Below, piece by piece: positions 2 through 12,151 of a stretch of DNA of 17,155 bases. A program made the translations under genes and the position numbers. Location: the NCBI GenBank assembly GCA_027031765.1, contig JALVPN010000055.1, positions 1 through 17,155 of the forward strand. The letters are read 5' to 3'. Position 1 is the stretch's first letter. Every line of letters begins with the position of its first letter. The notes beneath the pieces are model-generated. The model did not search any database. It had not been told where the DNA came from and was given only the letters and a program-made list of their open reading frames with translations. The stretch is from Promethearchaeota archaeon (GTDB lineage Archaea > Asgardarchaeota > Thorarchaeia > Thorarchaeales > Thorarchaeaceae).

Positions 2-670
2 ATAGGTTGCTACTCTCTAGGGGTGTTCTATGGACGGGCGATGACCACAATGCAGGCCATGGGCTCTGGTATCGGTACGGCCTGCGGTCTTGGTCAGCTG
101 CACAGGCTCGGCAAGAGAGTCCATGTTGTAGCAGTGGCCGGCGACTCCACGTTCTTCCACGCCTGTATCCCGGCGCTGGTCAATGCGAGGCACCACAATG
201 CAGACATCACGTTCCTAGTACTTGACAACAAGACCACTGCGATGACGGGTTTCCAGCCACACCCGGGTGTCCATGAGGCCGGCAACAGGACTGTCGTGAG
301 CATTGAGGCCCTTGCCCGTGCGGTCGGCCCCGACCTTCTCAGGAGAGTCGATGGCCGCTACATCCCCCGTCTTGTGGGGGAGATCCACTCCGCAGTCATG
401 GCGAGGGGACTGAAGGTGCTCGTCGTGGACAGCATGTGCCGACTGTATGAGGCACGGCAGGGTGCAAGTGCTTCAGACCTCCCGCCAATACGGGTGGACC
501 CTGCGCGCTGTCGCGGTGCGGTGTGCATGGTCTGTGTCCGTGACTTCAACTGCCCTGCTCTGGGCTGGGACAGCACGGCTGGCACAGCGTATGTCCAGGA
601 TGACGCGTGCGTCCGGTGCCGGGCATGCATCGATGTATGTCCACACAACGCAATAGGGATGGTGGAATGA
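2..670 (+). CDS. iorA: Indolepyruvate:ferredoxin oxidoreductase alpha subunit, C-terminal part (5'-truncated by the window edge)
   Basis: The frame is open from nt 2 (IGCYSLG, matching the IorA GDIGCYxLG motif). It has the TPP-binding motif GDSTFFH...LDNKTTAMTGFQPHP, a C-terminal ferredoxin domain (C-x4-C-x2-C-x5-CP and CVRCRACIDVCP), and is followed directly by an iorB-like gene. Confidence 0.92.
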   Translation: MGCYSLGVFYGRAMTTMQAMGSGIGTACGLGQLHRLGKRVHVVAVAGDSTFFHACIPALVNARHHNADITFLVLDNKTTAMTGFQPHPGVHEAGNRTVVSIEALARAVGPDLLRRVDGRYIPRLVGEIHSAVMARGLKVLVVDSMCRLYEARQGASASDLPPIRVDPARCRGAVCMVCVRDFNCPALGWDSTAGTAYVQDDACVRCRACIDVCPHNAIGMVE

Positions 671-671
671 G

Positions 672-1274
672 GTGCGTCCCGTGTTCGACATTATCGTTGC
701 AGGGGTGGGGGGACAGGGGAGCCTTGTATGCGGCCGCGTCCTTGCGCGGGCCGCCCTGCTTGAGGGCCTGCGGCCAGTGACCGGTGATACATTTGGTGCC
801 TCCAGACGTGGTGGCAGTGTACTCACACATGTCCGCCTTGGTCATGGTAGTGACCCACCCCCGCTCGTCCCGCGGGGACACCTCGACCTTCTCTTGGGCC
901 TTGAGCCCCTCGAAGCACTCCGTGCCGCCCAGTGTTATGCCGGGTCTGACACGGTCGCCCTTGTCAGCACCCTCCCGGTGCACACGACTGAAACCCTCTC
1001 TGGTACTCGACCCTATCCCCCTATCGACAGCCTCCTTGAGTCCCTGCGTTCGCTGTGCAGTGCAGTCAGTGCAGTTGACCCGTCTGACGTACTTCGGGCC
1101 ACCGGCTCTGGACATGTCGTCAATGTCTACATGTTGGGTGCGATGTGCGGCGCTCTGGACCTGCCAGTTTCCACAGGGGCCGTACGGACAGCAGTCAACC
1201 TTGTCGTAGGAATGGGTCCCGCCAACCGTCTTGCATTTGAGCGTGGGATGGAGGCCACAGGTGGGGGCCACTAG
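672..1274 (+). CDS. iorB: Indolepyruvate:ferredoxin oxidoreductase beta subunit (POR gamma-like family)
   Basis: N-terminal IIVAGVGGQG, then RRGGSVLTHVRLG, DLLLGLEPLEALR and VNVYMLGA. GTG start 1 nt after the iorA stop. Confidence 0.9.
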   Translation: MRPVFDIIVAGVGGQGSLVCGRVLARAALLEGLRPVTGDTFGASRRGGSVLTHVRLGHGSDPPPLVPRGHLDLLLGLEPLEALRAAQCYAGSDTVALVSTLPVHTTETLSGTRPYPPIDSLLESLRSLCSAVSAVDPSDVLRATGSGHVVNVYMLGAMCGALDLPVSTGAVRTAVNLVVGMGPANRLAFERGMEATGGGH

Positions 1275-3691
1275 AGGTTGCCCTGTCTTGCCTCCCGGTA
1301 CATGAGTTCAGAGAGCACCGTGAACATGTCCGCGACTCCTTCGCCGGTCTTTGCGCTGCTCTCCATATAGAGGAACCCGTTTGCTTCGGCCCATGCCTTT
1401 GCTTCGTCCGAACTCACGGTCCTGTCAGGCAGGTCAATCTTGTTTCCCACCACCAACATGGGTACCCGGGAACCAATCGACTCGTCGGCCTCAGCCACCC
1501 ACTTCTCAAGTTCAGTGAATGACCTGCGCCGGGTAACATCGAACACGAGTATCACGCCCGCGGTACCGGAATAGTACATCCTGCGGACCGCCTCGAACCT
1601 GGGCTGTCCGGCAACGTCCCAGACCTGCAGCTTGACGCCGACAGCATACTCCGAGTCCGGTGGCGAGATGTGCGTGAGCTTCACTGCAAACTGACTGCCG
1701 ACTGTCAGCTTGTAGTCGCGTTCGAAGACGCCGGTAACGTATCGGTTCACCAGTGTCGTCTTGCCGACCGCACCCTCTCCCAACACCATGCACTTGAACA
1801 GATACGTGTACGCCTCGGGCGAGACCCCCGGCCTCAGCGGCTTTGGTGGCCGGCTCCTGATCTCGGTGACGAGTGCACTTTCCACTGCCTGGACTTGTGG
1901 TGCAGCTGCGGTTGGCTGTGCCCCCTCCACCACCTGACCGAAGGCAGCCGCCACATCTGTCCCCGCCGCCGTCGTGGTGTCAGGTCCTTCTACTGCCACC
2001 GCAGGCGGTGGTGTGTCTGTTGCCACGGTCTCGCCGAAGAGCCGCTCAAGCAGTTCCTCGGCCTCCTTTACTACTGATAGGGGTTCGTGTGCACCTGACC
2101 CGTCAGTAGCACTGGAGCTCTCAGTTGTTGCGGTCGTCACAGTCGCCTCGGGGACGGTGGCCTCTGTTCCTCCGGTTGTTGCGGTGGCCTCTGCTGGTCC
2201 GGGAACGCTGGCGTCTGTTGTCGCTGTGCTCTCAGTGCTGCGTGGCTTGATTGGTGCGAACAGTGGTGCGGATGTGAGGTCGATTGCTGGCGACTCGTCG
2301 AAGAACGTGACCGGTGCCTCCCGGGCCGGTGCTGCTATGGCCTGTCCCTGATGGACGAGGACGGCTGTTTCGGGGGTCGTGACCTGTCTTAGGTTACCGT
2401 TCTCCTCCTTCCACATCAGCATGATGGGTCGGACCACAACCGTCCCCTCTTGGAGTGGTGTGAGCCGGACTTCTACCGACTTCTGCTCATAGGGCCCCAG
2501 GTCGAAGCTCAACTGCTCTGGGGTGACTGTCATGTGTTCCTTCGGGAACCAGTATATCTTGCCGGTGATACCGTTGATATGCCCGTCGGTCACATTTGCC
2601 ACAGTTATTCTCCCGACGAGGTCGGTGCCCATCTGCGCCTGTTGGCTGACCTCGAACTTGGGTATGACCTCGTAGAGCCCCTCTATGACTTTCAGCGGCC
2701 CGTTCGAAACACCGACGAGCACCTCTTTCCTGTCGTCACCACCGGCGTCGCCGACGCTGATGGAGAGTATCTTGGTACCCACATCGACGACCGCCAGTTC
2801 TTGGAGTTCGCCCATGAACACATTGTAGAAGCGTATCTTGTGGTCTGACGTTGCCACCACTATCTCGTCCATATGGTCCGCGTTGATCTCGGCCATGCGG
2901 ATTGACAGCGCATTGACGCCCTCAAGTCTGGTGAACAGGTCGAGCCTGCTCTCCTCGTTCCGGTATATCCTTATGGAGCCGTCATGTGTGACAACACCCA
3001 GCTCCATCTTCCTGTCACCAAGAGTGTCGCCGGCAGCCACCGAGATGATGGGGCTCTGTAACTCTATGATGTCCACCTGTTCAAGTGAGTGGCCCTTGAC
3101 CTTGAACACACGGAGAGTGTTGTCACGGTTGCCTGTAACAATCTCGTCTATCTCGTCGCCTATGACGTCGCACGTGCCGATTGCGATAGGCATGTCCTCC
3201 ATCTGGTAGCGGATCATCTCGACGAGGCTGTTGTCTGCCCCCATCCTGAGTATACGCAGCGTCGAGTCACTGCCTCCCACCACTATCTCGTTCTTCCCGT
3301 CACCTGTGACATCGGTCACAACAACGGTCGTGACGAACCTGTCCACGGGGCACTCCGCCAACAGTTCGAGGTGTCCACTGTCGGCATACCTGTAGACCTG
3401 CACAGTGCCTGCCTCCCCGGGGCGCTCGACCGTGCCCAGACTGCGTCCGAGGACAATCTCCGTGTCCCCATCATTGTTCGCATCGCCAATCTTGAGTGAG
3501 AGGATGCTACCATCCATGGTCAGCTGGGCCAGCATGCGCACCTCGGGGCCGTTGGCATCGTACACTCTGAGCATACCATCACGGCCTCCCGTACAGAGCT
3601 CGCTAAGCCCGTTCCTCGTTACGTCTCCAACAGCGATGGCACTTGTACTGAGGTCGTCTGAGACCTCGAACAGAATCCTCGGCGAGTGCAA
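1271..3691 (-). CDS. Multidomain protein: FG-GAP-like 7-repeat beta-propeller (aa ~1-338), Ig-like beta-sandwich (aa ~341-447), low-complexity linker (aa ~448-627), Rab-like small GTPase (aa ~628-806)
   Basis: Seven repeats of the form hhhGD-x3-DG-x2-E-hhhG-x2-D-x2-hRhY. GTPase motifs G1 GEGAVGKT, G2 Thr (LTVG), G3 WDVAGQ, G4 NKID and G5 SAK. TTG start with SD-like GGAAGGT 8 nt upstream and an in-frame TAA two codons upstream, which fixes the start. Confidence 0.93.
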   Translation of the reverse strand: MHSPRILFEVSDDLSTSAIAVGDVTRNGLSELCTGGRDGMLRVYDANGPEVRMLAQLTMDGSILSLKIGDANNDGDTEIVLGRSLGTVERPGEAGTVQVYRYADSGHLELLAECPVDRFVTTVVVTDVTGDGKNEIVVGGSDSTLRILRMGADNSLVEMIRYQMEDMPIAIGTCDVIGDEIDEIVTGNRDNTLRVFKVKGHSLEQVDIIELQSPIISVAAGDTLGDRKMELGVVTHDGSIRIYRNEESRLDLFTRLEGVNALSIRMAEINADHMDEIVVATSDHKIRFYNVFMGELQELAVVDVGTKILSISVGDAGGDDRKEVLVGVSNGPLKVIEGLYEVIPKFEVSQQAQMGTDLVGRITVANVTDGHINGITGKIYWFPKEHMTVTPEQLSFDLGPYEQKSVEVRLTPLQEGTVVVRPIMLMWKEENGNLRQVTTPETAVLVHQGQAIAAPAREAPVTFFDESPAIDLTSAPLFAPIKPRSTESTATTDASVPGPAEATATTGGTEATVPEATVTTATTESSSATDGSGAHEPLSVVKEAEELLERLFGETVATDTPPPAVAVEGPDTTTAAGTDVAAAFGQVVEGAQPTAAAPQVQAVESALVTEIRSRPPKPLRPGVSPEAYTYLFKCMVLGEGAVGKTTLVNRYVTGVFERDYKLTVGSQFAVKLTHISPPDSEYAVGVKLQVWDVAGQPRFEAVRRMYYSGTAGVILVFDVTRRRSFTELEKWVAEADESIGSRVPMLVVGNKIDLPDRTVSSDEAKAWAEANGFLYMESSAKTGEGVADMFTVLSELMYREARQGNL

Positions 3692-4001
3692 CGCTTACTA
3701 CCTTCCGGGTGCCTTGACTGGACATCCACGGCGCCGGCGGTCCTCTTGGGCCCATGGAGTGTGTTGTCCAGAATGTCGAGCACAGGGAGTCCTTTTTTAC
3801 TTTATGCGAGCCGGTACCGGGGACTCCCCAAGCGGGGTCAGTACGGTCTGTGTCCGTAGTGGGGCCCGGTGTTCCACGACCGGTGCCCGTGTTGTCTTCT
3901 AGGAGGTCATTGCTGCATTCATGTCCGACCCGCCCACAGGCGCTCAATCTGCGGGTCAGCTGGTTGCATGAGGGTGGACGGGACGGGGATGCACCCTACA
4001 C

Positions 4002-4008
4002 TATTTAA
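4002..4008 (+). promoter_or_regulatory. Putative archaeal TATA box for the ABC ATPase gene
   Basis: TATTTAA in a GC-rich background, ~35 nt upstream of the GTG at 4044, with SD-like GGTGGT at 4032-4037. Confidence 0.55.
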
Positions 4009-4043
4009 CTGGCACAGTCCAGTCCCGGCATGGTGGTCAGAGC

Positions 4044-4823
4044 GTGGCAAAGCTCTCGGTACACAACATCGTCAAGTCGTATCCGGGTGAGGGTACTACC
4101 ACGGTCCGCGTCCTGGACGGTGTCAGCCTGGAGATTGAAGAGGGCGAGTTCGTGTCGCTTGTGGGCCCCTCCGGCGCCGGGAAGACCACACTGCTGAAGA
4201 TAATCGCTGGCCTCCTGCCGCCAGACTCCGGTGAGGTGCTGATTGACGGGGAAGTGGTGGGCCTAGGGCACAGCAGGGTGGGCTACATCTTTCAGCAGGA
4301 GTCCCTGTTCCCGTGGCTCACGGTGCGTGGCAACATCGCCTTCGGCCTTGAGATACGCGGGGTGCCACGTGACGGGGTTCAACGGCGGACAGACGAGATG
4401 ATTGCTCTCATCGGGATGCGTGGTCTCGAAGACCACTACCCCCACGAGATTTCTGGGGGACAGGCACGGAAGACCGAGATGGCGCGTAGCCTGGTCACCC
4501 GACCCGACATCCTGGTGGCGGATGAGGCCCTCTCCAACCTCGATGCCCAGACGCGCAACTACCTGCAGGACGAGATACTGCGCATCTGGAAGGACACGGG
4601 GGCCACAGTACTGTTTGTCACACACAATGTGGATGAGGCCGTCTACACTTCTGACCGTATCATGGTGCTGAGCAACATCCCGGCGCGTATAATTGCAGAG
4701 TTCGGGGTGGACATCCCACGGCCCAGGACGCGCACCTCTCCAGAGTGTCTGGAGTACCGGAGCAAGATCCTCGACATCTTGAGGGTCGAGCAGGAGAAGG
4801 CCATGCAGAGGATTGGGGCCTGA
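4044..4823 (+). CDS. ABC transporter ATP-binding protein, NitT/TauT (SsuB/TauB-like) family
   Basis: Walker A GPSGAGKTT, Q-loop IFQQESLFPWLTV, signature ISGGQ, Walker B ILVADE, H-loop VTHNVDEA, and the family-typical C-terminal DIPRPR. Confidence 0.93.
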   Translation: MAKLSVHNIVKSYPGEGTTTVRVLDGVSLEIEEGEFVSLVGPSGAGKTTLLKIIAGLLPPDSGEVLIDGEVVGLGHSRVGYIFQQESLFPWLTVRGNIAFGLEIRGVPRDGVQRRTDEMIALIGMRGLEDHYPHEISGGQARKTEMARSLVTRPDILVADEALSNLDAQTRNYLQDEILRIWKDTGATVLFVTHNVDEAVYTSDRIMVLSNIPARIIAEFGVDIPRPRTRTSPECLEYRSKILDILRVEQEKAMQRIGA

Positions 4824-4850: not shown

Positions 4851-5690
4851 TCACACTGCGACCTCCTGCCGCCACCTCAGCAGCCGCTTCTCGCACCTTG
4901 TGAAGACTGCATTCATGAAGAAGCCAATCAGGCCAATGACGAGCATGCCCGAGATCACGCCGCCTGTCCGTCCCGCCTGTTGCATTATCAGGACAAGGTA
5001 TCCTAGGCCGAGGCCGCTGCCCACCATCTCCGCCGCGACCAGACACATCCACCCAATCCCGAAGCCGACACGCAGGCCTGCAAAGATCTCTGGTGCAGCC
5101 GATGGGATGACCACCCGCCTGAGGATCTGGAGCTCATTCGCACCGAAGGTCTTTGCCACGTCTATGTGCACAGGCTCGGTACGTCTGACACCGGCTGTCG
5201 TGTTGATGAGCAGCGGGAAGAATGCCCCGACCCATATGATGAACACCTGTGAATAGAGCAGTACGGGGCTGAACATGAGGATTGCAAGTGGAATCCATGC
5301 TATGGGGGGTATGGGGCGCATCGCTTCGACGACTGGCGTCGCAATAGAGTCTAGCACTCGATAGCGGCCCACTGCAATCCCAAGAGGGACTGCTGTCACT
5401 ATCGCCACTGTGAAGCCCAGCACCACACGGTACATGCTCAGCAACGTGTGTTCAATGAGGGTGTGCCCCTCGCTGTCACCCACAACTACGAGCCTGATGA
5501 AAGAGTCTGCAACGTCGACCAGGGTCAGGTCACCATCACTCGACACATAGACTATGACCGTCCACAGGACGAGCAGGAGGGCAAGGGCTGTCAGCCCCTT
5601 GAACACTGAGGGCCAGGGTATATGGCGTTGTGCCTGCCAGTCCTCATCCGTCTTGGCCACTGTCCTCTGTCCTTCAGTTCCGTCACTCAT
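4851..5690 (-). CDS. ABC transporter permease, NitT/TauT (SsuC/TauC-like) family
   Basis: Multiple TM segments; motifs HTLLSMYRV, RPIPPIAWIPL, an EAA-like loop (AKTFGANELQILRRVVIPSAAPEIFAGLR) and VAAEM..GLG. ATG at 5690 is preferred because the extension to 5825 reads as non-coding. Confidence 0.92.
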   Translation of the reverse strand: MSDGTEGQRTVAKTDEDWQAQRHIPWPSVFKGLTALALLLVLWTVIVYVSSDGDLTLVDVADSFIRLVVVGDSEGHTLIEHTLLSMYRVVLGFTVAIVTAVPLGIAVGRYRVLDSIATPVVEAMRPIPPIAWIPLAILMFSPVLLYSQVFIIWVGAFFPLLINTTAGVRRTEPVHIDVAKTFGANELQILRRVVIPSAAPEIFAGLRVGFGIGWMCLVAAEMVGSGLGLGYLVLIMQQAGRTGGVISGMLVIGLIGFFMNAVFTRCEKRLLRWRQEVAV

Positions 5691-5838
5691 GTCCGTCCGC
5701 TGCTGCACATGTCCTGCTTTTCTTTCTGTCGCTGCATGCGGGGGCGGATGTGGTCCGGGGTGTGTGGTCGTCCGAGGACGGGGCCTGTATTCGGCGGCCA
5801 GCCGGGCGGGGGTGCGGGAGGACACCCCCGGGGGCCGA

Positions 5839-6864
5839 CTAGCTGTCGCCGGTCACAAAAGAGGTGTTGATGAAGCCGTCGAGGAACGAGTCGACCTCGT
5901 CAGCAGTAAGACTGACCTGTCCCTCATGTATAAGGAAGCGCAGGTACACCTTGAGGGCCGTGCGGTTGAGGTTGTAGTCAAAGATGATCCGGTTGAACGC
6001 GGTGGTCACGGGAGTGGGGTCCATTTCGAGCCAGTCCACCGCGATCTGTGTGGCCTTTGTGGGGTTGTCGACAATCCACTGCTCAGCACGCTTGTGTACC
6101 TCTATGACCTTCCTGACGATGTCCGGGTGTTCGCTGAGGAACGTGTTGCTGGCAGCAACGACACAGCAGGGGTGCCGTGGCCAGATCTCCCCGGAGAGCA
6201 TGAGTGGCACCGCCTTTCCGTCGTACTCGGCTCTGGCACAGAACGGCTCCCATGCAATGAACGCTGGCGCGTCAGCAGTGAGCGAGTCCTCCATGTAGCT
6301 GACGGATGTGGTCTGGGGGGTGATGTCGTCCATGCTCATCCCTGACTGGTTGAGTGCGAGCCTCAGGAGGAATGCCTGTACTGTAGGTGGCCCCGGATAG
6401 TACACGACCTTCCCTGCAAGGTCTGCGATGCTCGTCACGTGTCCGCTGTCATACTCGGTCTTCGAGACCATGATTGCGGAGCCCTCTAGGTTCACCGCAG
6501 CGAGCAGGGTCACCATCGTGTTCTGGTTGATACGTTTGATGAGTGCTGGTGCAGCCCCCAAGTATCCCATGTCTATCTGTCCAGCCTTGAAGCCGTCCAT
6601 CTCGTAGCCACCGTTCTGGTACTGCGTCATCTGGACCTGCAGTCCTTCCTCTTCGAACCAGCCCTTTTCCACTGCGACCCGGAGGGCAAGCTGGTGGAGG
6701 TCCTGCGAGAGGTAGCCTATCCGCACGACCTGGGGCTGTCCGGTTGTCGTGGTCGTGGTCGAGTTGGTCGGGTTCAACCAGCCGCTGTACCAGACCGTCA
6801 TCAGTGCCGCAGACGCAACGATGGCGACCACAATGACCGCTATGGCCGCGTTCTTCGACTCCAT
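5839..6864 (-). CDS. ABC transporter substrate-binding protein, NitT/TauT (SsuA/NrtA/NMT1-like), with N-terminal membrane anchor
   Basis: N-terminal hydrophobic helix, Thr-rich linker, VRIGYL...A.EKGWFEEEGL, G.IDMGYLGAAP, AFIAWEPF and W..HPCCVV. SD-like GTGAGGA upstream of the ATG. Confidence 0.92.
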   Translation of the reverse strand: MESKNAAIAVIVVAIVASAALMTVWYSGWLNPTNSTTTTTTGQPQVVRIGYLSQDLHQLALRVAVEKGWFEEEGLQVQMTQYQNGGYEMDGFKAGQIDMGYLGAAPALIKRINQNTMVTLLAAVNLEGSAIMVSKTEYDSGHVTSIADLAGKVVYYPGPPTVQAFLLRLALNQSGMSMDDITPQTTSVSYMEDSLTADAPAFIAWEPFCARAEYDGKAVPLMLSGEIWPRHPCCVVAASNTFLSEHPDIVRKVIEVHKRAEQWIVDNPTKATQIAVDWLEMDPTPVTTAFNRIIFDYNLNRTALKVYLRFLIHEGQVSLTADEVDSFLDGFINTSFVTGDS

Positions 6865-6976: not shown

Positions 6977-7351
6977 ATGACCCTCCGTGACAGGATTCCT
7001 GAACAGCTACGAATTGGTGACGCGTTGATCTCCATTGTCATGGAAGAGGAGGTCTCCGTCTTTCCCACCAGCGACTACATCCTTGTTGAGGGCTCGCCGA
7101 AGGTCGGCAAGATCAATGTGCCGAAGATTGCATCCACACTACGAAACCTCGTAAAGAATGACCGGAGGATGGTCGCCCTCCGTGGGTACGGGTTCCGGGG
7201 GATTGGTCTTGCTGTACGCATTGCTCACGAGCTCAAGAAGCGCGAGAGCCGCTTCGTCTATCAGATGACCTTCGACACGTTCGATGCGTTGGAGCCGGAG
7301 GAGGACAAAGTGTTGACGAGCATCCAGATTGTCGTGATGCCACCCGAGTGA
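6977..7351 (+). CDS. Alba-fold nucleic-acid-binding protein (divergent), with N-terminal extension
   Basis: The inferred beta-alpha-beta-alpha-beta-beta pattern (YILV / VPKIASTLRNLV / MVALRGYG / GIGLAVRIAHELKK / VYQMTFDT / TSIQIVVM) parallels the Alba pattern IVIKARGRAISKAV...VSTIEI. Confidence 0.65.
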   Translation: MTLRDRIPEQLRIGDALISIVMEEEVSVFPTSDYILVEGSPKVGKINVPKIASTLRNLVKNDRRMVALRGYGFRGIGLAVRIAHELKKRESRFVYQMTFDTFDALEPEEDKVLTSIQIVVMPPE

Positions 7352-7727
7352 GCCTGTGTCGCCACTGCTGTCGTGTTTCGCTCCACATGTTCCATGCACA
7401 TGCACTGTACTGGCCCTGACCTGCGTCACCATCAGTCATGTGCTGTCATGCAATGGAGTCCGGGTGCTGGTGCTCCGGGACACTGTGTCTGGTAACGTCA
7501 GGGGCCTAGGTGTCAGTGGTCGAGCTCTCGGGGCCTGTCCGCAGAGTCGGCCCTGCGCCCTGGTCCAGTGTTGTTTCACGACCGGCCCCGCAACGTGCCC
7601 GGCGCGAGAGGTGTTGTGCCGTTGTGCGCAGTGCGTCGGTGCCACCACTCCACTTGCGCCGAAGCCCTACTTTAACTCGGTCTCCGCCCCTCCTTACAGT
7701 ACTGGACGAGCCAGGAGGCGTTGCATC

Positions 7728-8969
7728 TTGTACAGTGCCGGTACGAATGTGAGTGTCCCGCTCGTGTTTCTCTCCCTGTGCCTCCTGCTTGCACCGGTCG
7801 CGCACCCATACGGGCCACTCCGTGTCTGCGCCCTGCCAGGGCCACAGGTCGGGAGGGTGGACATGCTGGAGGGCCCCATGGACTCGGTCCCCATTGTGCT
7901 GGACGGTGATGAGGGCCTGCGTGCAAGTGGTCTGCCTGGTTCGGGCACTGCCAGTGACCCCTTCGTGATTGCAGGCCTCAGAGTCGAGTCGCCGACCTAC
8001 TGCCTCCGCGTGTCCGATACGACTGAGCACGTGGTCGTCCGTCGGTGCCTTTTCAGGTCATACGGAATGAACGGCTCGGTGGCAGTGTTGCTCCTGAACG
8101 TCACGAACGTGGTGGTCGAGGAGTGTACCGTGATTGGTGGTATGAGCGGTCTGGTCCTTGCCGGTGCGTCCGGGTGTACTGTCCGTGGATGTCGTATGGT
8201 AGACGCCCAGTCCGGCATCTGGGCTACTGGCTCATCTGACTGTGTCTTCTCCGGGAATGCGGTCTACCATAATGATGTGGGCGTGCTGGTCAACACTTCA
8301 TCGCTCTGCCGTCTGACACACAACCGTGTATACGGTAACAGAGTGTCCGGGGTTGCCCTCGGGCCCGGTACCACAGCGATCTCTGTATATGACAACATGA
8401 TTGGCTGGAATGGTCGGGGTCGCGGGCCAACACCAACATCATGGGACGCCACAGATGACGGCGTGTCAAACGTATGGGACGACGGTGTTTCCCGTGGCAA
8501 CAACTGGACTGTGGCGGCTGGTGCGGTGGTCCCCATCCGTGGCTCGGCGGGCTCGGCTGACCGGTTCCCGTCACTCCTCCGTGACCGTGACGCACCGCGT
8601 CTGTCCAGTGCTCCAGATCTCCTGTTTGTTGAGGGGAGCGGCTACCACTCGATAGCGTGGGCCGTCGATGACCCGTTCGTCCTCACATACAGACTGGGAC
8701 GTGATGGCGCGGCAGTCGAGAGTGGTACTCTCGTCAGTCCCAGTGTGAACGTGACTGTGAGCGACCTCCCCAGAGGCCGCCACTACTTCTCACTCACCGT
8801 GGTGGACGCGGCTGGGAACGCTGCCACGGGACACATCACTGTCACCGTCCTCGAAGACATCTTTGCCCGCATCGTGTCACCATACGTGCTGCTCGCATCG
8901 TTACTGAGCGTGGTCTGTGTTGTGTGTGTCCTCGTCGTTGTGCACCGTTTCCGCCCCGGCCCCACGTGA
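7728..8969 (+). CDS. Membrane-anchored cell-surface protein: signal-like N-terminus, right-handed parallel beta-helix (NosD/pectin-lyase-like), Ig-like domain, C-terminal TM anchor
   Basis: PIVLDGD..GSGT..DPFVI cap, ~22-aa beta-helix repeats (GhhL...S.ChhRGC/GNAV), GNNW...DRFP, an Ig-like module (AP.L...W...D..Y...G.H.F.L.V.DAAGN) and a hydrophobic C-terminal helix followed by RFR. The TTG start at 7728 (GGAGG 9 nt upstream, TTTAA at 7671-7675) is uncertain. The ORF extension back to 7356 is judged non-coding. Confidence 0.8.
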   Translation: MYSAGTNVSVPLVFLSLCLLLAPVAHPYGPLRVCALPGPQVGRVDMLEGPMDSVPIVLDGDEGLRASGLPGSGTASDPFVIAGLRVESPTYCLRVSDTTEHVVVRRCLFRSYGMNGSVAVLLLNVTNVVVEECTVIGGMSGLVLAGASGCTVRGCRMVDAQSGIWATGSSDCVFSGNAVYHNDVGVLVNTSSLCRLTHNRVYGNRVSGVALGPGTTAISVYDNMIGWNGRGRGPTPTSWDATDDGVSNVWDDGVSRGNNWTVAAGAVVPIRGSAGSADRFPSLLRDRDAPRLSSAPDLLFVEGSGYHSIAWAVDDPFVLTYRLGRDGAAVESGTLVSPSVNVTVSDLPRGRHYFSLTVVDAAGNAATGHITVTVLEDIFARIVSPYVLLASLLSVVCVVCVLVVVHRFRPGPT

Positions 8970-9125
8970 TGCCCCTGTCGTGACACTGCTGCCTGCATGT
9001 GGGTGTTGGACTGTGCACAACCATGCCAGTAAGTTCATTAAGATGCTCCGGCTGAGGCCGCGGGAGAGCTCGGGACGGAGCGAGTGCGAGAGCCCGTCCT
9101 GAGTATATCCGTGCTGAAGGATGAG

Positions 9126-9707
9126 ATGACGATGGCTCTTGATTTCGCTAAGGGAATCACGGAGTTCCGCTGGCACGGTCGCGGTGGTCAGGGTGTGGTC
9201 ACCAGCAACCAGATGCTGGGCAAGGCCGCCCTCGCGGAGGGCAACTACATCCAGGCCTTCCCCGAGTTCGGGCCAGAGCGGACCGGCGCCCCCGTAAGGG
9301 CGTTCCTCCGGATAAGCAAGAGGCCCATTCAAGTGTATGCGCAGGTCTACAACCCCGACATTGTGGTCTGCATTGACCCGACACTCCTTGAAGTCTTGGA
9401 CCCGACAGAGGGGCTCAAGGAGGACGGCCTCCTCGTGTTGAACACAACCATGTCGCCCGAAGAGGTGCGGGACAAGTACGACTTCAGGGGCGGCAAGGTC
9501 GTCACAGTGGACGCCACGACCATTGCACTTGAGATACTTGGCCGGCCGTTCTATAACATGCCCACCATGGCAGCGGCCGTGAAGCACTCGGGTGTCGTGA
9601 GGCTCGAGTCTGCAATCCAGGCCGTACTTGAGCGCTACCCGGGCAAGATTGGCGAGCTCAACAAGGCGGCCATGGAACGAGCAGCAGAGGAGGCGAGAGT
9701 GGGATGA
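9126..9707 (+). CDS. porG: Pyruvate/2-ketoisovalerate:ferredoxin oxidoreductase gamma subunit
   Basis: EFRWHGRGGQGVVT, FPEFGPERTGAPV and PDIVVCIDPTL. Start is ATG 9126 or 9132. TATA-like CATTAAGA at 9036-9043. Confidence 0.93.
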   Translation: MTMALDFAKGITEFRWHGRGGQGVVTSNQMLGKAALAEGNYIQAFPEFGPERTGAPVRAFLRISKRPIQVYAQVYNPDIVVCIDPTLLEVLDPTEGLKEDGLLVLNTTMSPEEVRDKYDFRGGKVVTVDATTIALEILGRPFYNMPTMAAAVKHSGVVRLESAIQAVLERYPGKIGELNKAAMERAAEEARVG

Positions 9708-10000
9708 GCAAGAGGTTTGACGAGATCCCAATGGCGGGCATCATCATAGAGCCCGGCAATGCAATGGAGTACAAGACTGGCGGTTGGCGTGCCATGCGCC
9801 CTGTCCACACGGACGAGACCTGCCTCTGGATAAAGAACGGCACATGTGGCCTGTGCTGGATATACTGTCCTGACAATGCCGTCCGGCTCATTGAAGAGAA
9901 TGGCAAGTACCGCTACGAGTACGACTACGACTACTGCAAGGGCTGTGGCATCTGTGCCAACCAGTGTCCAACCGGCAGCATCAAGATGGAGAGTGAGTAG
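9704..10000 (+). CDS. porD: Pyruvate/2-ketoisovalerate:ferredoxin oxidoreductase delta subunit (2x[4Fe-4S] ferredoxin-like)
   Basis: KTGGWRAMRPV, C-x7-CGLCWIYCPD and DYDYCKGCGICANQCP. ATGA overlap with the porG stop. Confidence 0.93.
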   Translation: MSKRFDEIPMAGIIIEPGNAMEYKTGGWRAMRPVHTDETCLWIKNGTCGLCWIYCPDNAVRLIEENGKYRYEYDYDYCKGCGICANQCPTGSIKMESE

Positions 10001-10004
10001 ACAG

Positions 10005-11210
10005 ATGACCGTTGTAGAAAGAGTCCCCACTGACAAGGTTGTAGTGGAGGGCATGACGGGTGACGCAGCCATTGCTCATGCCCTCAAGCAGTGCGACATC
10101 GACGTCCTGGCTGCCTACCCTATCACGCCACAGACGATTATCGTTGAGGACTTTCAGAAGTTCGTGGCCAATGGTGAGGTGAAGACCCGGGTCATCCCGG
10201 TGGAGTCCGAGCACAGTGCGATGTCCGCCTGTGTCGGCGCCTCAGCTGTGGGTGCACGTGTTGCCACCGCAACGGCATCGGCAGGCCTTGCGCTGATGTG
10301 GGAGATCCTCTACTGCGCTGCATCCATGCGCATGCCCATCGTCCTTGCAGTTGCCAACCGGGCCCTGTCGGCACCCATCAACATACACAACGACTGGTCC
10401 GACTCCTACGGCGCCCGCGACAGTGGCTTCATCCAGATCTACTGCCAGAGCTGTCAGGAGGCCTATGACACTGTCATAATGGCGTTCAAGATTGCAGAGG
10501 ACCACGACGTGCTGCTCCCTGTGATGGTGTGCATTGACGGGTTCATCCTGAGCCACAACGTAGAGCGTGTGGAGATGCTGCCGACGGAGGCTGTGCAACA
10601 GTTCCTGGGTGTCCGCAAACCAGCAATCGCCCTCGACCCGGACAACCCGGTGACCATGGGCCCCCTCGCCCTCACCGACTACTACTTTGAGTTCAAGGAG
10701 CAGCAGGACCGTGCGATGGCAAGGGTACCTGAGGTGTTCGAGCGGGTGGAGTCCGAGTTCGAGAAGATGACCGGCCGGCGGTACGGCAGGTTCGAGACAT
10801 ACAGGGTCGAGGACGCCGACATCATCATCTTCACACACAGCACCCCCGGCGGGACTGCAAAGGCAGTCGTAGATGCGCTCCGCGAGAGAGGTGAGAAGGT
10901 GGGTGTTGTCAGGTTGAGGATGTTCCGACCGTTCCCTGCAGAGGCACTGAGAGAGGTGTTACGCAATGCAAAGGCTGTGGCGGTCTTCGAGAAGTGCAGG
11001 TCGTTCGGGGCGCCATCGAACCCGCTAGCCCTCGAAGTGCGCACTGCACTCTACGACCTTGATGAGCGCCCACTGGTCACCGACTTTGTGATTGGCCTCG
11101 GTGGCAGGGACGTGCCCCCGTCCACTATAGTGGAGGGGGTTGAGAAGACAAAGGAGTACCTGAAGGCTGGCAGGGCTCCACTGTACGAGACACTGGGGGT
11201 GCGGAAGTAA
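10005..11210 (+). CDS. porA: Pyruvate/2-ketoisovalerate:ferredoxin oxidoreductase alpha subunit
   Basis: AAYPITPQT, ESEHSAMSAC.GAS, TATASAGLALMWE, NRALSAPINIHND and RMFRPFP. The real ATG is at 10005; the ORF extension to 9846 overlaps porD out of frame. Confidence 0.95.
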   Translation: MTVVERVPTDKVVVEGMTGDAAIAHALKQCDIDVLAAYPITPQTIIVEDFQKFVANGEVKTRVIPVESEHSAMSACVGASAVGARVATATASAGLALMWEILYCAASMRMPIVLAVANRALSAPINIHNDWSDSYGARDSGFIQIYCQSCQEAYDTVIMAFKIAEDHDVLLPVMVCIDGFILSHNVERVEMLPTEAVQQFLGVRKPAIALDPDNPVTMGPLALTDYYFEFKEQQDRAMARVPEVFERVESEFEKMTGRRYGRFETYRVEDADIIIFTHSTPGGTAKAVVDALRERGEKVGVVRLRMFRPFPAEALREVLRNAKAVAVFEKCRSFGAPSNPLALEVRTALYDLDERPLVTDFVIGLGGRDVPPSTIVEGVEKTKEYLKAGRAPLYETLGVRK

Positions 11211-12151
11211 TGGCCGTCCGTCTGAAAGACATGTTGAAGCGTGAACCAATCCTGAGTTCAGGCCACAGGATGTGCGCCGGTTGTGCGGCGCCCACTGTGG
11301 TCAAGTTGATGGGGATGGCCCTCCGGGGCCCGACCATAGTCTGTGAGGCTACAGGGTGCCTCGAGGTCGCAACAACAATCTATCCGTTCACCGCGTGGAA
11401 GATCCCGTGGATCCATGTGGCCTTTGAGAATGCCGCTGCAGTGGCGTCGGGTGTTGTGGAGGCCATCAATGCGATGCGTGACAAGGGCCGCTACAAGGAC
11501 GAGCAGGTGGACGTGATTGCCATCGGTGGTGATGGCGGGACATTCGACATCGGTTTTGGGGCGCTGAGCGGAGCCCTTGAGCGCGGCCACAAGTTCGTCT
11601 ACATGGTGTACGACAACGGCGCATACCAGAACACGGGCATCCAGCGCTCAGGTGGCACCTTCCCGGGCCAAGAAACAACGACCTCGTGGGCGGGCAAGGT
11701 CGAGCCGGGCAAGCGCCAGCGGAAGAAACCGCTCGCCGAGATTGTGGCTGCTCATAAGATACCGTATGTTGCCACAGTCGACCCGTACCACTACCGTGAC
11801 TTCATCACGAAGTTCAGGAAGGCGCTGGAGGCTGACGGGCCGGCGTTCATCCACGCATTCTCGCCATGTCCCCGTGGCTGGCGCTCTGACACATCAAAGA
11901 GCATCGAGCTTGCCAAACTGGCCGTGGAAACGGGCCTACACCCGCTCTACGAGGTGATTGACGGGAAGGAGTGGATCATGTCGGGCCCAAGCAAGCGGCT
12001 CAAAGAGCTCAGACCTGTCGACGAGTACTTCAAGACCCAGGGCCAGTTCAAGCACCTCTTCAAGCCCGAGTGGGCAGAGTTCCGTGCCTGGATCCAGGAG
12101 GAAGTGCTCAAGGACTGGGAGGAGCTCAAGCGCAAGTGTGGTGTCAGCTAG
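11210..12151 (+). CDS. porB: Pyruvate/2-ketoisovalerate:ferredoxin oxidoreductase beta subunit (TPP-binding)
   Basis: GHRMCAGC, TGCLEV, GGDGGTFDIG...YDNGAYQNTGIQRS and SPCPRGW. TAATG overlap with the porA stop. Confidence 0.95.
   Translation: MAVRLKDMLKREPILSSGHRMCAGCAAPTVVKLMGMALRGPTIVCEATGCLEVATTIYPFTAWKIPWIHVAFENAAAVASGVVEAINAMRDKGRYKDEQVDVIAIGGDGGTFDIGFGALSGALERGHKFVYMVYDNGAYQNTGIQRSGGTFPGQETTTSWAGKVEPGKRQRKKPLAEIVAAHKIPYVATVDPYHYRDFITKFRKALEADGPAFIHAFSPCPRGWRSDTSKSIELAKLAVETGLHPLYEVIDGKEWIMSGPSKRLKELRPVDEYFKTQGQFKHLFKPEWAEFRAWIQEEVLKDWEELKRKCGVS

Follow-up and report, generated by a model that had tools for sequence, protein, structure and literature searches.

The fusion of a small GTPase to its own scaffold is a principle that is already known. 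Roco proteins (LRRK2: Roc-COR ... WD40) and the large Rabs (Rab44/45, CRACR2A) carry a G domain and protein-interaction domains in one chain, with a long N-terminal extension preceding the C-terminal Rab domain in the large Rabs. Beta-propellers are also known as partners of small GTPases: the BBSome subunit BBS1, a propeller plus GAE domain, binds ARL6-GTP, and RCC1 and Sec12 are beta-propeller guanine nucleotide exchange factors (GEFs) of Ran and Sar1, respectively, neither of them being of the FG-GAP type. FG-GAP/VCBS proteins are generally known as mostly secreted or cell-surface proteins, a location to which their partner domains (dockerin, Poly_export) also point. Among Asgard archaeal GTPases, Thor-Rab (PDB 7EZB/7EZD/7EZE) hydrolyzes GTP at a rate similar to that of Rab11B, with Arg37 as a possible intrinsic arginine finger; the same study mentions Asgard GTPases that are fused to longin, to roadblock or to unknown domains, and none with a propeller (Tran et al. 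2024, PMC10933270). Here, a 17,155-base stretch of contig JALVPN010000055.1 from a Promethearchaeota archaeon of the family Thorarchaeaceae (assembly GCA_027031765.1; G+C ~60%; hereafter the window) was analyzed and found to contain an 806-codon open reading frame (ORF; 1271..3691, minus strand) that joins an FG-GAP-type beta-propeller, an immunoglobulin (Ig)-like beta-sandwich, an acidic linker and a Rab-like G domain. We put the probability at roughly 60% that the encoded protein is a cytoplasmic multidomain Rab-like GTPase functioning as a lineage-specific, GTP-switched scaffold, in which the switch is tied to an FG-GAP plus Ig module by a leash. The combination of FG-GAP propeller, Ig and Rab-like domains is undescribed in the literature found. 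In line with the initial annotation of this DNA, which did not recognize the architecture as described, no paper could so far be found that describes a propeller-Ig-linker-Rab fusion, the supplementary tables of the eukaryotic signature protein (ESP) catalogue lying outside that search.

The protein consists of four regions: propeller (residues 1-340), Ig-like sandwich (341-452), linker (453-629) and G domain (630-800). Pfam analysis identified FG-GAP_3 in six N-terminal stretches and Ras at residues 633-796 (E 2e-45). Translation is assigned to a TTG codon, which is matched by the starts of orthologues at the equivalent residue (M/L-x-SP[KR]ILFE; alignment) and is preceded by a Shine-Dalgarno-like GGAAGG box with its 3' edge ~11 nucleotides upstream; the stop codon is located at 1271-1273. 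A word-indexed search returned more than 120 full-length homologues (757-826 amino acids, 59-65% identity), most of them annotated as 'GTP-binding protein [Candidatus Thorarchaeota]' and all with the identical Pfam set, which places the architecture far beyond chance. The initial annotation had described one uninterrupted 806-codon ORF with four regions and neither signal peptide nor transmembrane segment. Pfam, AlphaFold2 (AF2) models, sequence motifs and the homologues confirm the first point, with the gene on the minus strand, and the second agrees with a maximum Kyte-Doolittle 19-residue mean of 1.19 and an N-terminus that is not hydrophobic. As the 806-residue protein has no signal peptide or transmembrane segment and is fused to a GTPase, it is, judged from its sequence, cytoplasmic.

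The G domain (1292..1804, minus strand) is the most conserved part of the protein, with 72-81% identity between orthologues. It matches the Pfam Ras model (PF00071) with 154.6 bits (cutoff 21.6), while Arf reaches 54 bits (E 2e-14) and TIGR00231 85.8 bits. The G1-G5 motifs are complete (GEGAVGKT 638-645, switch-I T663, WDVAGQ 691-696, NKID 750-753 and SSAK 778-781) and, together with the catalytic Gln696 and the switch-I Thr663, invariant in 22-25 orthologues. By its motifs, the domain looks catalytically competent. The Rab hydrophobic triad is retained (F668, W691, Y706/Y707), and RabF-type motifs can be recognized by eye in the alignments, namely KLQVWD (RabF2), RF..VRRMYYSG (RabF3/4-like) and ILVFDVT (RabF5-like), with the RabF1 region reading VGSQF versus IGVDF. 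Among solved structures, Thor-Rab ranks first (7EZB, E 8e-47, ~50% identity), followed by Rab14, Rab2, Rab11 and Ypt1.

Thor-Rab and the fused G domain share the G1-G5 motifs as well as RabF-like motifs (KLQ[VI]WD, YY-x-G, LVFDVT), and neither protein has C-terminal prenylation cysteines. The protein encoded in the window ends in YREARQGNL, and the Lys-rich tails of its orthologues are also devoid of a C-terminal cysteine; one orthologue has an internal cysteine in its tail. Given that the C-terminal geranylgeranylation cysteine(s) are absent, the protein is referred to as Rab-like rather than as a bona fide Rab. It differs from Thor-Rab by an N-terminal extension of 630 residues, which comprises the propeller, the Ig domain and the acidic linker, by a 4-residue insert in the beta2-beta3 hairpin and by the lack of an arginine at the position of Arg37, which aligns with Leu662 here and with Thr in orthologues. 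The fused switch is therefore probably dependent on a GTPase-activating protein (GAP). The similarity to Roco proteins and large Rabs implies common descent for the G domain only. The protein has neither COR, kinase or LRR domains nor EF-hand or coiled-coil regions, and an FG-GAP propeller occupies its N-terminus.

In a G-domain tree, of which only the inner part is trustworthy owing to long outgroup branches (one partial row was omitted), the G domains of the fusion proteins form a single clade (SH-aLRT, a Shimodaira-Hasegawa-like approximate likelihood ratio test, 95). Its sister (82) is a clade of standalone Asgard Rab-like GTPases of ~182 amino acids, which includes a paralogue from the genome of the window itself (G000:C128:8398); the 7EZB-type paralogue of this genome (G000:C77:26780) is located just outside these two clades. 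A search for longer proteins containing this G domain returned only the fusion family and is thus uninformative as to other fusions.

The distribution of the gene was analyzed by searching a phylum sample of 301 genomes with the N-terminal 455 residues (E <= 1e-20). Within Thorarchaeaceae, 72 of the 76 genomes contain a match, nearly always as a single copy, and the one genome searched from the sister family encodes an N-terminal part that is 44% identical and interrupted by a contig end. No match was found in ~220 genomes from 28 further Asgard families. The only matches beyond Thorarchaeia in the phylum sample are two stand-alone propellers of ~365 amino acids in one further Asgard family (G066:C3:60195-61067 and G095:C57:6017-6883; 30% identity, E 1e-21). 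With the N-terminal 460 residues as query, HMMER was run exhaustively against 1.84 billion representatives. Apart from some fragments, just three clusters of full-length type (50% identity level) were recovered, with no split or stand-alone N-terminal form and no match to the Ig domain beyond the family. One of the three (P0124) is only 40% identical and still retains the complete four-part architecture, from which it follows that the fusion is probably older than the split between Thorarchaeaceae and the sister family. The architecture is thus found across Thorarchaeia once per genome, with no split form of the fusion: it is a single-copy core gene of Thorarchaeia, and the fusion is old in that lineage. 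Because the gene was found only in Thorarchaeia, it appears to be a lineage-specific invention. Based on the G-domain tree and this genome distribution, the fusion may have arisen when a duplicate of the ~182-residue standalone Rab-like paralogue was joined, in the thorarchaeal lineage, to a prokaryote-type FG-GAP plus Ig module.

The same distribution bears on whether the architecture could be an artefact, either a chimera joined within the linker or a secreted FG-GAP surface protein forming the N-terminal part, FG-GAP plus Ig modules being usual in bacterial proteins that are secreted, where they have dockerin, DUF11 or TIG partners. The window sequence occurs in a single public DNA run, obtained from a hydrothermal-vent metagenome that is probably the source sample. 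The Logan contigs of this run match 1000-2089, 2124-2567 and 2539-4100 with zero differences; they stop within the linker and leave 34 bases (2090-2123) without cover, so that the junction of this copy is not directly bridged. This gap falls in a T/A-rich linker insert of this copy, and depth is similar on either side of the linker (9.6 vs 8.7). Against a chimera, more than 70 genomes contain the uninterrupted architecture with no internal stop codon, two of them being single-contig assemblies (G236 and G242). Although this copy is unbridged, conservation in other genomes, including the 72 of 76 in the same family, indicates that the linker junction is not chimeric, a concern that had been raised at the outset. 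A secreted protein would not fit the lack of a signal peptide or transmembrane segment, nor a G domain that requires cytoplasmic GTP. Both possibilities are contradicted by conservation, and we consider an artefact or misplaced module extremely improbable.

The propeller (residues 1-340; 2672..3691, minus strand) scores 67 bits with FG-GAP_3 (cutoff 26.9) and 37 bits with FG-GAP (cutoff 22.1). Each blade contains a loop of the D-x-[ND]-x-D-G-x-x-E-[ILV] type, for example DANNDGDTE at residues 70-78. An AF2 model of residues 1-455, built from 26 sequences, shows seven four-stranded all-beta blades followed by a beta-sandwich (residues 342-452). The mean predicted local distance difference test (pLDDT) score is 91.4, with values mostly above 90 in the propeller, and the predicted template modeling (pTM) score is 0.87; no helix of four or more residues is present in the model. 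A Foldseek search of the PDB with this N-terminal module returned BBS2 (E 3e-19), BBS9, BBS7, ITFG2 and BBS1 first, ahead of integrins and WD40 propellers. BBS1, BBS2, BBS7 and BBS9 (PDB 6VBU, 6VOA, 4V0M; E 3e-19 to 1e-12) share with the protein an N-terminal seven-bladed propeller of the FG-GAP class followed by a beta-sandwich, and a small GTPase works with the scaffold in both systems. ITFG2 of KICSTOR (PDB 9O5A, 9V6E and others) shares a cytoplasmic FG-GAP propeller.

These similarities bear on the proposal, made in the initial annotation, that the protein is a true Rosetta stone: propeller and sandwich would be specific homologues of BBS1/2/7/9 or of ITFG2/KPTN, and the fusion would record an ancestral link between scaffold and GTPase in a proto-coat or adaptor. 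Besides the Foldseek ranking, several comparisons are in line with this proposal. In VIA-align, BBS2 (Z 35.9) and ITFG2 (Z 35.0, 324 residues aligned) are the top structures. Comparison with the PDB by sequence (E 2e-6) and by profile (E 4e-8) also places ITFG2 first, ahead of BBS7 and BBS2, with the alignment running from N-terminus to N-terminus over three blades at 30-36 bits. Further, BBS1 (PDB 4V0M among the Foldseek matches) offers an established precedent for a propeller plus GAE protein bound by ARL6-GTP, and a 2026 preprint lists, without discussion, a structural cluster with members from Asgard archaea and eukaryotes only, which is labelled BBS7/ITFG2 and matches an existing ESP catalogue, meaning that the propeller may already be catalogued.

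However, several comparisons speak against a specific relationship. Unrelated WD40 propellers (Ciao1, COPI alpha and COPI beta') reach Z 32-34 in VIA-align, so that the margin of BBS2 and ITFG2 is small, just 2-3 Z units. Pfam matches to BBS2_Mid (54.8 bits), Beta-prop_BBS7 (51 bits), PHTB1_N and Itfg2 each cover a partial profile only: BBS2_Mid and Beta-prop_BBS7 are above their cutoffs, yet the matches span one or two blades of each profile, and Itfg2 (PF15907) remains at 26.3 bits, below its cutoff of 27, with the divergent orthologue P0124 reaching 54.6 bits. Four generic FG-GAP controls exceed the cutoffs of BBS2_Mid, Beta-prop_BBS7 and Itfg2, often beating the protein studied here. One of them (P0147) scores 68, 49 and 48.5 bits, respectively, versus 55, 51 and 26 here. 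With a second generic FG-GAP protein (P0140) reaching 63.4 bits, also above this protein, the Itfg2 model is unspecific.

Sequence comparison leads in the same direction. The best sequence matches from beyond the family are giant FG-GAP repeat proteins of prokaryotic type (26-33% identity, 95-158 bits, E 1e-41 to 1e-25), far closer than ITFG2 (30 bits) or BBS2/BBS7 (15 bits). Relatives of the third-best of these matches (P0129) occur in Bacteroidota, Planctomycetota, Acidobacteriota, other bacterial phyla and some Asgard archaea. They are sparse and 21-40% identical in their best segment, mostly below 31%, and from their spread in genomes no donor of the propeller can be named. Joint fits of both N-terminal domains likewise favor prokaryotic proteins. 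In the ESM Atlas, bacterial FG-GAP plus Ig clusters with ASH/HYDIN-like, DUF11 or TIG partners align over 335-389 residues with TM-scores (template modeling scores) of 0.66-0.73 and a root-mean-square deviation (rmsd) of 2.7-4.2 Å, whereas Foldseek superposition of the two domains on BBS proteins gives an rmsd above 20 Å. Prokaryotic FG-GAP/VCBS plus Ig proteins, with ASH/HYDIN-like, DUF11, TIG or CARDB domains, are therefore both the nearest sequences and the best two-domain fit; they differ in that none of those listed carries a GTPase, while the protein described here is cytoplasmic, with a Rab-like switch at its C-terminus.

The overall organization is also unlike that of the eukaryotic complexes. 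The coiled-coil, platform and helical C-terminal domains of BBS2, BBS7 and BBS9 are absent, and in contrast to protocoatomer proteins no alpha-solenoid is present, the propeller being followed by an all-beta sandwich, a disordered linker and a G domain. The GTPase is Rab-like rather than Arf/Arl- or Rag-like and is covalently fused, whereas ARL6 is separate and Arf-like. ITFG2 lacks an Ig domain, linker and GTPase, and its sequence similarity is weak, of the degree expected from a common class of repeat. The likeness to BBSome and KICSTOR proteins is thus that of the FG-GAP propeller fold class, common to ordinary prokaryotic FG-GAP proteins, and a claim of ancestry is unsupported. Of the proposed BBS/ITFG2-like scaffold, the top structural matches in Foldseek and VIA-align stand, while generic prokaryotic FG-GAP proteins match the same Pfam models equally well or better and are closer in sequence. 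The propeller does not stand apart from bacterial VCBS/FG-GAP proteins and instead groups with prokaryotic FG-GAP proteins, the very outcome that the initial annotation had named beforehand as speaking against it. With a module of prokaryotic class, a Rab-like GTPase and a gene found only in Thorarchaeia, a precursor of GTPase-gated coats is not what emerges, and we regard the Rosetta-stone explanation as quite unlikely.

The sandwich (residues 341-452; 2336..2671, minus strand) is closest to the CARDB/DUF11/TRAP-beta/macroglobulin class of Ig-like folds. Modeled alone with AF2, it reaches a pLDDT of 88. ESM Atlas clusters of DUF11, CARDB, TRAP_beta and BatD domains superimpose with TM-scores of 0.80-0.82 and an rmsd of 1.7-2.9 Å, and the nearest domains in Foldseek and VIA-align are TRAP-beta, macroglobulin, transglutaminase-C and CARDB, with the CARDB structure 3IDU matching at E 2.4e-4 in Foldseek. 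No Pfam model reaches its cutoff on this region, the best being Transglut_C with 20.2 bits versus 26.6. The sandwich had been suggested to be a GAE or appendage domain, and the GAE domain of BBS1 does match (VIA-align Z 11.2, rmsd 2.6 Å, 103 residues aligned), within ~1 Z of the best hit (Z 12.2) and level with the sandwiches of macroglobulin and transglutaminase. A lower Z of 9.1 is obtained for the alpha-adaptin ear, and the BBS9 GAE domain gives E 6.8e-4 and a TM-score of 0.59 in Foldseek. On the basis of these models, a GAE-like fold is possible, but it is not the best description, the DUF11/CARDB/TRAP-beta domains being nearer.

Between sandwich and G domain lies an acidic, disordered linker of low complexity, rich in threonine, alanine and proline (residues 453-629; 1805..2335, minus strand). 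Its net charge is -15 here and -11 to -24 in 22 orthologues. At 170 residues, it is the longest of 22 orthologues compared, the others having 114-142, owing to a T/A-rich insert; no tandem repeat was detected in the linker DNA. Three motifs, all on the minus strand, stand out from the alignment. The first, M1 (residues 476-483, PLFAPIKP; 2243..2266), corresponds to an orthologue consensus of approximately [SP]-[PL]-F-x-P-V-x-G-T-G-F, with the alignment being uncertain for this copy. M2 (residues 538-554; 2030..2080) has the consensus LKAAEELLDQLFG with A544, E545, L547, L548, L551 and F552 invariant, and by its sequence pattern this segment is probably helical. M3 (residues 603-622; 1826..1885) is basic and proline-rich, follows the consensus ES-x-LV-x-EIR-x-R-x-PKPPRPG and directly precedes the G domain. 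Because M1-M3 are conserved within an otherwise free-running linker, their sequences suggest that they are docking motifs.

An extension of the Rosetta-stone explanation holds that an FG-GAP propeller and ear-like sandwich would already have cooperated with a Ras-superfamily switch in the cytoplasm of an Asgard archaeon. The F-x-P...G-T-G-F, LLDQLFG and PKPPRPG motifs would be short linear motifs that bind the propeller or ear of the same chain depending on the nucleotide state, by analogy with the appendage-peptide and ARL6-BBS1 interactions of eukaryotic coats and adaptors. This is also quite unlikely; if true, the protein would serve as a prokaryotic model for GTPase-gated adaptor assembly or be related to such assemblies.

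Linker and propeller also bear on a different possibility, in which the propeller plus Ig module or the linker motifs would act in cis as GEF, GAP or autoinhibitor, making the protein a self-contained timer. Hydrolysis by a G domain that has no intrinsic arginine finger must be assisted, no GAP or GEF gene is found among the neighbors, M3 is invariant immediately before the G domain, many Arg and Lys residues of the propeller are invariant as well, and beta-propeller GEFs such as RCC1 for Ran and Sec12 for Sar1 do exist. However, the propellers of RCC1 and Sec12 are not of the FG-GAP type, and both proteins are missing from the top structural matches, and a flexible tether of 114-170 residues is unneeded for a fixed catalytic contact. 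Further, the tests carried out here show no contact between the N-terminal module and the G domain, the predicted complex of the two (with GTP and Mg) having a score of 0.00 against a mark of 0.32, a result that itself weighs neither way on contact. A built-in regulator is thus an unlikely explanation.

For the GTP-switched scaffold that we favor, the following mechanism can be envisaged. The G domain, without the intrinsic arginine of MglA and Thor-Rab, would cycle between GTP- and GDP-bound states, assisted in trans by a GAP and a GEF. The propeller plus Ig module would serve as a protein-binding platform, and the tether would hold switch and platform at high local concentration. The nucleotide state may then gate binding by the platform or by the linker motifs, or the location of the complex. 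In most orthologues, the C-terminal tail could add a weak affinity for membranes: it is Lys-rich (e.g. EEKKSKM, EAKKKGM) in ~20 of the 22 aligned. The copy in the window ends in a short tail instead (residues 801-806, RQGNL, without Cys; 1274..1291, minus strand), and one other orthologue (P0121) also lacks the Lys-rich tail.

It should be noted that a number of observations weigh against this scaffold model. Membrane binding via the Lys-rich tail cannot be general, given that the copy in the window lacks it. The adjacent genes, whose order is conserved, are metabolic (2-oxoacid:ferredoxin oxidoreductases and an ABC transporter). Genes for a GAP, a GEF, a roadblock or a longin protein were not found among the neighbors of the locus, and none of the public runs listed as holding the window sequence is an RNA run. 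A specific relationship to BBSome subunits or ITFG2 may exist, given that these outrank integrins and WD40 propellers in Foldseek, and if the BBS7/ITFG2 cluster of the 2026 preprint corresponds to this family, it would argue against a purely generic prokaryotic propeller.

Gene order around the GTPase gene is conserved in all genera sampled: pyruvate:ferredoxin oxidoreductase (POR) genes, a beta-helix protein, a 124-residue protein, three ABC transporter genes and the GTPase gene, facing iorB and iorA. At the edge of the window, the end of a thiamine pyrophosphate (TPP)- and 4Fe-4S-binding subunit (2-670, plus strand) and a POR-gamma-type subunit (672-1274, plus strand) of a 2-oxoacid:ferredoxin oxidoreductase are encoded. 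The sizes of this pair at orthologous loci (~625 and ~200 amino acids) suggest that it resembles the indolepyruvate:ferredoxin oxidoreductase IorA/IorB. Both genes converge on the GTPase gene, with an overlap of 4 bases between the 3' ends, and this arrangement is kept in most genera sampled (14 of 15 loci compared within the family). On the other side, an intergenic region (3692..4043) separates the GTPase gene from the divergent gene of an ABC transporter ATPase (4044-4823, plus strand). An A/T-rich box cataaagtaaaaaagg at ~3790-3806 within this region could be a promoter, and an 84-residue ORF at 3754-4008 shows no conservation. The ATPase gene is followed by genes for an ABC transporter permease (4851-5825, minus strand) and an NMT1/THI5-like binding protein (5839-6864, minus strand). 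The transporter is divergent from the GTPase gene in every Thorarchaeaceae genome compared and absent from this position in the sister family, where the GTPase gene is directly divergent from the gene of the 124-residue protein. The latter (6977-7351, plus strand) is a Thorarchaeota-specific protein conserved as a neighbor in both families; it has no Pfam match, and a language-model search returned a weak SpoVS-like lead (score 0.88). A right-handed beta-helix (NosD-like) protein of 537 amino acids (7356-8969, plus strand) and the gamma, alpha and beta subunits of POR (9084-12151, plus strand) follow in conserved order. The neighbors were considered as functional partners and rejected, being metabolic genes of which none is known as a GTPase regulator. 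PADLOC identified no defense system.

The genome itself (G000, 2.95 Mb) contains 25 matches to the Ras family model. One of these is the 7EZB-type Thor-Rab paralogue (C77:26780-27265), and the contig that carries it contains another Ras-family gene at a distance of 3 kb. Besides the fusion protein, the genome encodes at least three multidomain small GTPases. One (L043:73-2049, contig C61) has 658 amino acids with a Ras domain at 477-649, and its residues 1-476 have no Pfam match or usable Atlas match. Another (L046:997-2868, contig C90; 623 amino acids) contains an Arf-like G domain at 166-298, and the third (L049:2-1570, contig C207; at least 522 amino acids) has an Arf-like G domain and ends at the contig edge; the remainder of both proteins is without Pfam match. 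With 25 Ras matches and at least three further multidomain small GTPases, fusion of GTPases to other domains is a recurrent feature of this genome.

Asgard small GTPases figure prominently in the debate on the origin of eukaryotic membrane trafficking, and almost none of them has a known partner. The caution that follows from the comparisons above is that Pfam, KEGG or Foldseek labels pointing to the BBSome or KICSTOR on Asgard propellers reflect the FG-GAP fold class and are not to be taken as evidence of ancestry. In the family described here, a likely partner module is part of the same chain, almost all thorarchaeal genomes contain the gene as a single copy, and for a close paralogue of the G domain a crystal structure and GTP hydrolysis have already been reported. 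Having its own module, a near-universal distribution and a crystallized GTPase paralogue, the fusion would offer a practical entry to what an archaeal Rab-like switch controls.

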